A program made the position numbers and the translations under genes. Positions 72 through 1,542 of a DNA stretch of 1,542 nucleotides are shown here, piece by piece (position 1 is the stretch's first letter; each line of letters opens with the position of its first letter). The DNA is from Escherichia coli (GTDB lineage Bacteria; Pseudomonadota; Gammaproteobacteria; Enterobacterales; Enterobacteriaceae), in NCBI RefSeq assembly GCF_003334335.1, contig NZ_QOWQ01000103.1; one strand, written 5' to 3'. The notes under the pieces were generated by a model that searched no databases, was not told the origin of the DNA, and worked only from the letters and a program-made list of their open reading frames with translations.

Positions 72-473
72 GTGGGAACCAAAGTGTCAGATATGCAGAA
101 AAATGTGACTCCCGGCAGGCGAAAAGGCTGCCCTAATTATCCTCCCGAATTTAAACAGCAGCTCGTTGCTGCCTCCTGTGAACCCGGGATATCCATCTCA
201 AAACTTGCTCTTGAAAATGGCATTAACGCCAATCTGTTGTTCAAATGGCGACAACAATGGCGCGAGGGAAAGCTGCTATTACCTTCTTCAGAGAGCCCCC
301 AGCTACTTCCTGTGACTCTCGATGCAGCTGCCGAACAGCCAGAATCGCTCGCAGAGGACCCGGAAACCCTCAGTATCAGCTGTGAGGTAACGTTCCGGCA
401 CGGGACGCTCCGCTTCAATGGCAATGTCAGCGAAAAGCTCCTGACTCTGCTGATACAGGAACTGAAGCGATGA
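72..473 (+). CDS. tnpA: IS66-family accessory protein TnpA (Orf1), small helix-turn-helix protein; start ambiguous (GTG at 72 or in-frame ATG at 93)
   Basis: 133-aa ORF from the track. The segment ...PEFKQQLVAASCEPGISISKLALENGINANLLFKWRQQWREG is a typical transposase-associated HTH signature. Stop TGA at 471-473 overlaps the next gene's ATG (ATGA). No strong Shine-Dalgarno sequence precedes either candidate start. Confidence 0.85.
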   Translation: MGTKVSDMQKNVTPGRRKGCPNYPPEFKQQLVAASCEPGISISKLALENGINANLLFKWRQQWREGKLLLPSSESPQLLPVTLDAAAEQPESLAEDPETLSISCEVTFRHGTLRFNGNVSEKLLTLLIQELKR

Positions 474-817
474 TCCCGTTACCTTCCGGGACCAAAATTT
501 GGCTGGTTGCCGGTATCACCGATATGAGAAATGGCTTCAACGGCCTGGCTGCGAAAGTACAAACGGCGCTGAAAGACGATCCCATGTCCGGCCATGTTTT
601 CATTTTCCGGGGCCGCAGCGGCAGTCAGGTTAAACTGCTGTGGTCCACCGGTGACGGACTGTGCCTCCTGACCAAACGGCTGGAGCGTGGGCGCTTCGCC
701 TGGCCGTCAGCCCGTGATGGCAAAGTGTTCCTTACGCAGGCGCAGCTGGCGATGCTGCTGGAAGGTATCGACTGGCGACAGCCCAAGCGGCTGCTGACCT
801 CCCTGACCATGCTGTAA
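470..817 (+). CDS. tnpB: IS66-family Orf2 protein (TnpB of IS66 type; unrelated to the IS200/IS605 TnpB nuclease)
   Basis: 115-aa ORF. The translation MIPLPSGTKIWLVAGITDMRNGFNGLAAKVQ...HVFIFRGRSGSQVKLLWSTGDGLCLLTKRLERGRFAWP matches the highly conserved IS66 Orf2 pattern. ATG at 470-472 overlaps the tnpA stop. Stop TAA at 815-817. Confidence 0.9.
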   Translation: MIPLPSGTKIWLVAGITDMRNGFNGLAAKVQTALKDDPMSGHVFIFRGRSGSQVKLLWSTGDGLCLLTKRLERGRFAWPSARDGKVFLTQAQLAMLLEGIDWRQPKRLLTSLTML

Positions 818-843
818 ATCTCTTTATCCTGGTTGTCACAGAA

Positions 844-867
844 TAAGCCCGGTAAAATACGGGCTTA
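844..867 (+). promoter_or_regulatory. Stem-loop in the tnpB-tnpC intergenic region that includes the first base of the tnpC start codon; possible translational control element
   Basis: Read directly: taagcccg (844-851), loop gtaaaata (852-859), cgggctta (860-867). This is a perfect 8-bp stem. It is not followed by a T-tract, so it does not look like an intrinsic terminator. Confidence 0.4.
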
Positions 868-1542
868 TGAACGACATCTCTTCTGACGACATCTTCCTGC
901 TAAAACAGCGCCTGGCCGAACAGGAAGCGCTGATCCACGCCCTGCAGGAAAAGCTGAGCAACCGGGAGCGCGAAATAGACCATCTGCAGGCGCAGCTGGA
1001 TAAACTCCGCCGGATGAACTTCGGCAGTCGTTCCGAAAAAGTCTCCCGCCGTATCGCACAAATGGAAGCCGATCTGAACCGGCTTCAGAAAGAGAGCGAT
1101 ACGCTGACTGGTAGGGTGTATGACCCGGCAGTACAGCGTCCGTTGCGTCAGACCCGCACCCGTAAGCCGTTCCCTGAATCACTACCCCGTGACGAAAAGC
1201 GACTGTTGCCTGCGGCGCCGTGCTGCCCGAACTGCGGCGGTTCACTGAGCTATCTGGGCGAGGATACCGCCGAACAGCTGGAGTTGATGCGTAGCGCATT
1301 CCGGGTTATCCGGACGGTACGGGAAAAACATGCCTGTACTCAGTGCGATGCCATCGTGCAGGCACCTGCACCTTCGCGGCCCATCGAGCGGGGTATCGCC
1401 GGACCGGGGCTGCTGGCCCGCGTGCTGACCTCGAAGTATGCAGAGCACACCCCGCTGTATTGCCAGTCAGAAATATACGGCCGGCAAGGTGTGGAGCTGA
1501 GCCGTTCACTGCTGTCGGGCTGGGTGGATGCATGCTGCCGGC
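867..1542 (+). CDS. tnpC: IS66-family transposase TnpC (Orf3), N-terminal ~225 codons; 3'-partial, continues beyond the window
   Basis: ATG at 867-869 opens a frame with no stop to the window end; it is absent from the ORF track because it lacks a stop. My translation reads MNDISSDDIFLLKQRLAEQEALIHALQEKLSNREREIDHLQAQLDKLRRMNFGSRSEK...LPAAPCCPNCGG...HACTQCD...YAEHTPLYCQSEIYGRQGVELSRSLLSGWVDACC. This shows a leucine-rich coiled coil followed by a CxxC...CxxC zinc-finger-like motif, as expected for the IS66 TnpC N-terminus. The DDE catalytic domain would lie downstream of the window. Confidence 0.85.
   Translation, partial: MNDISSDDIFLLKQRLAEQEALIHALQEKLSNREREIDHLQAQLDKLRRMNFGSRSEKVSRRIAQMEADLNRLQKESDTLTGRVYDPAVQRPLRQTRTRKPFPESLPRDEKRLLPAAPCCPNCGGSLSYLGEDTAEQLELMRSAFRVIRTVREKHACTQCDAIVQAPAPSRPIERGIAGPGLLARVLTSKYAEHTPLYCQSEIYGRQGVELSRSLLSGWVDACCR

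Follow-up and report, generated by a model that had tools for sequence, protein, structure and literature searches.

In the 1,542-nucleotide stretch of Escherichia coli DNA analyzed here (the window), the four bases ATGA at positions 470 to 473 are the native, conserved overlap of the tnpA stop codon and the tnpB start codon of an IS66-family insertion sequence. Judged from the junctions of related elements, coupling of tnpB translation to that of tnpA by termination-reinitiation emerges as the most likely mechanism at this site, and we consider it probable. The whole window is the left end of one such element, intact-looking and typical of its family with the usual tnpA, tnpB, and tnpC, which follow a terminal inverted repeat as three open reading frames (ORFs) on the same strand. 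The features are as follows.

Positions 1 to 22, no strand assigned: left terminal inverted repeat (IRL), GTAAGCGTACAGCCTGAACCGT, which pairs with the right repeat (IRR) in full copies.
Positions 93 to 473, plus strand: tnpA, IS66-like accessory protein, 126 aa from ATG 93 (NF047595; PGAP in copies L001 and L090).
Positions 457 to 460, plus strand: weak Shine-Dalgarno (SD)-like AGGA inside tnpA, 9 nt before the tnpB ATG (anti-SD duplex, -4.3 kcal/mol).
Positions 470 to 473, plus strand: ATGA, the tnpB start ATG (470-472) over the tnpA stop TGA (471-473) (sequence, PGAP, and relatives).
Positions 470 to 817, plus strand: tnpB, IS66-family accessory protein, 115 aa (PF05717, NF033819, and a conserved N-terminus).
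Positions 843 to 868, plus strand: predicted stem-loop in the tnpB-tnpC spacer, AUAAGCCCG / loop GUAAAAUA / CGGGCUUAU (folding compared with shuffles).
Positions 867 to 1542, plus strand: tnpC, IS66-family transposase, N-terminal 225 codons, running past the end of the window (NF033517).

Matches to the window are found by megablast in 3,970 of 5,426 complete E. coli genomes, the best of them with 99.9% identity over its full length; an O26 strain carries 11 to 13 matching places. Members of the IS66 family have imperfect terminal inverted repeats of about 20 to 30 bp with GTAAGCG as their first bases, as given in ISfinder descriptions, and full copies of the element seen here are 2,289 bp long, with inverted repeats of the GTAAGCG type and an 8-bp target duplication. 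Two copies, L001 and L090, serve as full-length references; L002 was dropped from this role because its tnpC region is broken by another element. In both references IRL and IRR are 22 nt long with 82% complementarity and are separated by 2,245 nt, and IRR lies outside the window. The target duplication is read from L090, a 99.9% identical copy inside yehR in which the element is bounded on either side by the 8-bp direct repeat GAACGGCA; the window itself begins at IRL. The family features observed are thus the three-gene order, the inverted repeats, the 8-bp duplication (in L090), and the ATGA overlap of tnpA and tnpB, and PGAP names the transposase of the full copies only as “IS66 family transposase.” Over 1,542 bases, the sole difference from the top-scoring E. 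coli copies is at position 160, where the window has A and those copies have T, giving TnpA a Gln (CAG) at residue 23 in place of Leu (CTG).

The first-pass annotation had assigned the two genes at the junction to tnpA and tnpB of an IS66-family element, and profile matches bear this out. The HTH accessory protein TnpA matches the NCBIfam equivalog NF047595 (IS66_ISRel24_TnpA) with 97.4 bits against a cutoff of 74, and TnpB matches both Pfam PF05717 (TnpB_IS66; E = 1.4e-38) and NCBIfam NF033819 (120 bits; cutoff, 50). Residues 94 to 224 of TnpC align to positions 4 to 133 of the 387-position profile NF033517 (transpos_IS66) with 135 bits, which falls below the cutoff of 180 because the gene is truncated by the end of the window; the catalytic part of this DDE transposase is located beyond it, and in full copies, PGAP gives tnpC 461 aa. 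On E. coli copies that are 99.9% identical, PGAP places tnpA at window positions 93 to 473, tnpB at 470 to 817, and the start of tnpC at 867. No solved structure was found for TnpA or TnpB. Two candidate starts are present for tnpA, GTG 72 (up to which the frame is also open) and ATG 93, of which PGAP picks the latter. SD-like pairing is weak at both (-2.8 and -4.2 kcal/mol, respectively), and no sigma-70 consensus promoter was detected upstream of tnpA in the IRL region.

At the junction, the ORF that runs from 72 or 93 to 473 is closed by TGA 471-473, and the ORF that runs from 470 to 817 is opened by ATG 470; the sharing of four bases reported by the first-pass annotation agrees with the sequence, with the ORFs, and with the PGAP annotation of the 99.9% identical copies. 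Because the tnpB frame is closed by an in-frame TGA at 383-385, its first start codon after that stop is ATG 470, and use of the next in-frame start, codon 19, would delete the invariant residues P5, G15, T17, and D18, ATG 470 is the only credible start of tnpB. In an alignment of 20 diverse TnpB homologues (50 to 70% identical), 16 start at the same residue, with the motif M-I/V-x-x-P-x-G. The tetranucleotide alone is ordinary, with 5 occurrences of ATGA in the window against an expectation of about 6. The start of tnpC at 867-870 also reads ATGA (ATGAAC), yet no ORF ends there, and the tetranucleotide by itself therefore carries no information. What does exceed chance is that it sits where two genes supported by homology meet, and that about 80 of the 89 related loci analyzed retain it.

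These loci are drawn from 80 loci with a TnpB profile match in different bacterial species, 8 loci on plasmids, and 2 copies from E. coli, of which 89 were analyzed; a script located where tnpB starts and where the ORF before it ends, and odd cases were inspected by eye. Identity to the proteins of the window is about 45 to 100% for TnpB and mostly 25 to 45% for TnpA. The script classed 78 loci as having a 4-nt NTGA overlap (62 ATGA, 14 GTGA, and 2 TTGA), and two more (L054 and L022) have ATGA on inspection, which brings NTGA to about 80. Four loci show a 1-nt overlap, of the IS679 type (TGATGA) or as ATGATG (L039 and L041), the latter alternatively read as ATGA one codon upstream, and two show 7-nt overlaps (ATGCTGA and ATGTTAG). 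A start or stop codon at the junction is lost in three loci only, all of them decayed copies: in L014 the stop is lost (ATGC) and tnpA extends 58 nt into tnpB, and in L004 (CTGA) and L081 (GTAA) the tnpB start codon is lost, with further signs of decay. No non-overlapping tnpA/tnpB junction was found in an intact element among the 89 loci. The open frame of TnpA ranges from approximately 113 to 265 codons and the codons flanking the junction vary widely, and the exact junction is thus kept while the surrounding sequence and TnpA diverge. Related loci share ancestry and their counts are not independent events, so these numbers show retention under selection and not independent origins.

The IS66 prototype lineage is an alphaproteobacterial element of the octopine Ti plasmid (NC_002377, 162427-164879; PGAP, “IS66-like element IS66 family transposase”), and it has the same gene order and the same ATGA overlap of tnpA and tnpB, gggctgcgATGAtcccggtt. 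It differs from the window in the codons flanking the junction, in the N-terminus of TnpB (MIPVP versus MIPLP), and in the length of the tnpB-tnpC spacer (45 nt, 164083-164127, versus 49 nt). In the first 100 kb of Ti plasmid sequence, tBLASTn returned a TnpB remnant only; the intact IS66 lies in the last segment. IS679, from E. coli plasmids (L087 and L088; PGAP, “IS66-like element IS679 family transposase”), likewise has the order tnpA-tnpB-tnpC and opens tnpB with the homologous ATG followed by A. Its junction, however, reads TGATGA (L087:1499-1504 and L088:1499-1504): the first TGA ends tnpA with a 1-nt overlap with the ATG, and a second in-frame TGA forms the ATGA. In addition, its tnpA is longer (216 aa versus 126 aa in the window), a strong SD-like GGGAG precedes its tnpB (-7.6 kcal/mol, versus -4.3 kcal/mol for AGGA), and its tnpB-tnpC spacer measures 19 nt versus 49 nt. 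The view of the first-pass annotation that this copy keeps a native and conserved IS66 junction is therefore upheld by the prototype lineage and by the wider set of loci. The comparison it proposed with reference elements comes out identical for the former, though not for IS679. Even there tnpB opens with the same start codon, which the tnpA stop still overlaps, and no start at a different, non-overlapping codon appears in close homologues.

Two further loci show the range of junctions in the family. A far more divergent IS66-family tnpA/tnpB pair on the Ti plasmid (L093:38502-39279; NC_002377, 138502-139279) has an annotated 17-nt overlap, ATGTTCCGGCTGGCTGA, and the ATGA is therefore a mark of the main branch, of IS66, IS679, and E. 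coli type, and is not universal. On a 2,454-bp contig of Superficieibacter electus (L003:1-1600), we observe a TnpB that is 97% identical to that of the window beside a TnpA that is only 57% identical, with the junction TTGA. DNA identity between this locus and the window is about 0.65 to 0.75 across tnpA and 0.85 to 0.93 across tnpB and tnpC, which suggests either a much faster evolution of TnpA or a mosaic element with its breakpoint near the junction. The junction arrangement itself is not new, as the literature already ascribes it to elements of the IS66 family. Han et al. 2001 are said to describe the ATGA overlap explicitly, and so, reportedly, does ISfinder.

The stop/start spacing of -4 in the window is that of a class of coupled gene pairs (PMC6728339, PMC12548453) in which NTGA is the commonest coupling spacing (PMC12548453), and coupled translation has been reported for 13 of 14 overlapping pairs tested (PMC6728339). 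The first-pass annotation had called the ATGA a classic arrangement for translational coupling, and as a statement on geometry this stands, while coupling itself is a further step. Five native E. coli pairs with ATGA overlaps, hyfHI, astDB, ydbH/ynbE, menDH, and bioBF, share both the -4 geometry and the host species with the window and were tested experimentally in a study that found most overlapping pairs strictly coupled; of these five, three are strictly coupled, one is coupled to about 60%, and one, bioBF, is not coupled (Huber et al. 2019; PMC6728339). Outcomes thus range from strict to none, so that geometry alone does not prove coupling, and since one of the five pairs is uncoupled and one only partly coupled, we infer coupling here, along with its efficiency and a shared tnpA-tnpB mRNA. 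For IS66-family elements as such, a passage in a review on the mobile elements of acidobacteria, which cites Han et al. 2001 for IS679 and the IS66 family, describes the proteins as made via translational coupling, with translation of the distal ORF following only once the proximal one has been translated (PMC3469429).

The overlap could instead be no more than inherited compact packing, with free 30S subunits initiating tnpB through the AGGA at 457-460 and translation of tnpA mattering little, a reading that we hold to be unlikely although several points speak for it. Pairing of the AGGA with the anti-SD reaches -4.3 kcal/mol at a 9-nt spacing, the overlap of bioBF shows that ATGA can occur with no coupling (PMC6728339), and -4 overlaps are perhaps abundant because they evolve easily, the start codon already supplying three of the four bases (PMC12548453). 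Across the family, however, the signals that such initiation calls for are scarce. We compared SD pairing in the 18 nt before tnpB with that at sites within the tnpA and tnpB genes of the loci concerned, and over 75 unique NTGA junctions there is no enrichment (median, -3.2 versus -2.8 kcal/mol in the background; Mann-Whitney p = 0.065), with pairing of -4.4 kcal/mol or stronger at 29% of junctions and 25% of background positions. Many family members have essentially no SD before tnpB (values near 0 kcal/mol), and the AGGA at 457-460 is not conserved in the family. Since pairing is not above the coding background, most members are without signals for independent initiation, and we reject SD-driven initiation as a feature of the family. 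The same reading is also at odds with the use of GTG or TTG as the tnpB start in 16 of the 78 NTGA junctions, and with the retention of the exact overlap despite the divergence of TnpA in identity and ORF length described above. In the window itself, some independent initiation of tnpB could occur from the AGGA, which lies at a usable distance. For this reason the “fixed stoichiometry” that the first-pass annotation read from the overlap is too strong, as coupling only makes the output of tnpB depend on that of tnpA.

Coupling is at present explained by two models (PMC12548453): in one, the ribosome that has just terminated initiates again; in the other, a structure that inhibits initiation is melted. 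Under the second of these accepted models, an RNA structure would hide the tnpB start until ribosomes on tnpA melt it and new ribosomes bind. The minimum free energy (MFE) fold of positions 400 to 540 indeed has the AUG region in a long-range helix, but this fold is no better than those of shuffled sequences (z = -0.92 and -1.04; 29 to 31 of 200 shuffles fold equally well), and 77 unique junctions likewise show no excess of structure (mean z, 0.02; 3% below -2). The lack of excess structure at the junction points to reinitiation, not to structure melting, and we reject the latter as the main mechanism of coupling, its part here being very improbable.

A programmed -1 frameshift that joins TnpA and TnpB into one protein, in the manner of IS3 or IS1 elements, is the least credible reading of all and is rejected: tnpB does lie in the -1 frame relative to tnpA, and databases hold predicted proteins with a TnpA-like N-terminus and TnpB, but the tnpB frame is closed by TGA 383-385, the sole X XXY YYZ heptamer (G GGA AAG, 266-272) lies upstream of that stop, so that a shift there would terminate before tnpB and no usable slippery site is left, and the review passage cited above states that IS66 elements do not frameshift (PMC3469429, citing Han et al.). 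The database proteins, for example P0156, P0184, P0232, and P0244, are 235 to 247 aa long and consist of a TnpA-like N-terminus with an HTH followed by a complete TnpB. The linkers between the two parts resemble out-of-frame tnpA, so that frameshifted copies or sequencing errors are a more probable origin than natural fusion, and we did not use these proteins as Rosetta-stone evidence. The orfA and orfB genes of the IS3 and IS1 families resemble the window in being two consecutive insertion sequence genes of which the second is in the -1 frame. In those families a slippery heptamer inside a long overlap leads to an OrfAB fusion transposase, whereas the window has a 4-nt overlap, no usable slippery site, and separate proteins.

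Termination-reinitiation thus fits best: signals for independent initiation are weak or missing, no structure masks the start, and the stop/start overlap is strictly kept. A ribosome that ends tnpA at UGA 471-473 would be incompletely recycled, and the same ribosome would bind initiator tRNA at the AUG, which lies one base upstream, and continue into tnpB. TnpB would then be made only where and when TnpA is made, in a ratio set by the efficiency of reinitiation, and the weak AGGA at 457-460 may help to hold the ribosome in place.

The 49-nt tnpB-tnpC spacer of the window is predicted to form a strong hairpin. The stem-loop at 843-868 has a dG of -16.7 kcal/mol and a z of -5.3, and none of 200 shuffles folds as well; its 3′ arm takes in the A and U of the tnpC AUG (867), and its loop contains a -10-like hexamer, TAAAAT (853-858). 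No SD-like sequence precedes tnpC in the window (-3.0 kcal/mol), and the stem-loop could gate the translation of tnpC. RNAalifold on 41 aligned tnpB-tnpC spacers gives no consensus structure in a fixed register, and family-wide folding before tnpC is weakly significant (mean z, -0.45; p = 0.011), so the hairpin is strong in the element of the window and is not a demonstrated RNA motif of the family. An Rfam search gave no family match in the window; a hit to the sRNA isrJ on the minus strand of positions 470 to 535 (20.7 bits against a gathering threshold of 37; E = 0.54) was treated as chance.

Related elements share a conserved -10-like hexamer that ends 5 to 8 nt before the tnpC start, present in 62% of 77 unique spacers versus 4% of random positions. 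Its variants include TAAACT, TAAAAT, TAAAGT, TAATAT, and similar hexamers (e.g., L065:2849-2883, L030:747-785, and L006:831-869), and 27 distinct spacers share the pattern TTGTAA-N17-TAAACT-N6/7-ATG, in which the TAA of the first hexamer is the tnpB stop codon. This geometry may suit a sigma-70 promoter giving a leaderless tnpC mRNA; the pattern might just as well act as an A/U-rich enhancer of translation or as a repeat with two sites for protein binding (a GTAAAC direct repeat). In the window, the -35-like TTGTCA (833-838) stands only 14 nt from TAAAAT, which counts against a promoter. A consensus scan of the entire window, a weak negative, revealed neither a sigma-70-like promoter nor a plus-strand terminator, and at the tnpB-tnpC spacer of the window the promoter scan reported nothing. 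The literature searched yielded nothing specific on the ATGA or tnpC of IS66 elements or on a leaderless mRNA or internal promoter in them, and nothing on the hexamer pattern upstream of tnpC. In a bolder proposal, which we consider doubtful, tnpB would be an obligate SD-independent reinitiation gene, with TnpB never exceeding TnpA, and tnpC would be expressed separately from a leaderless mRNA with an internal promoter. If true, such separate expression of tnpC would contradict the textbook picture of serial translational coupling of three proteins on one mRNA.

Beyond annotation, the significance of the junction is small. As the tnpA/tnpB junction is intact in the window, this copy is potentially active. 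At the level of the family, the count across related loci shows selection acting on the stop/start overlap of IS66-type elements despite the drift of TnpA sequence. If coupling is verified, tnpA-tnpB of IS66 would serve as a convenient case of SD-poor reinitiation from nature and would narrow down the models for the joint action of TnpA and TnpB, accessory proteins that are still uncharacterized.
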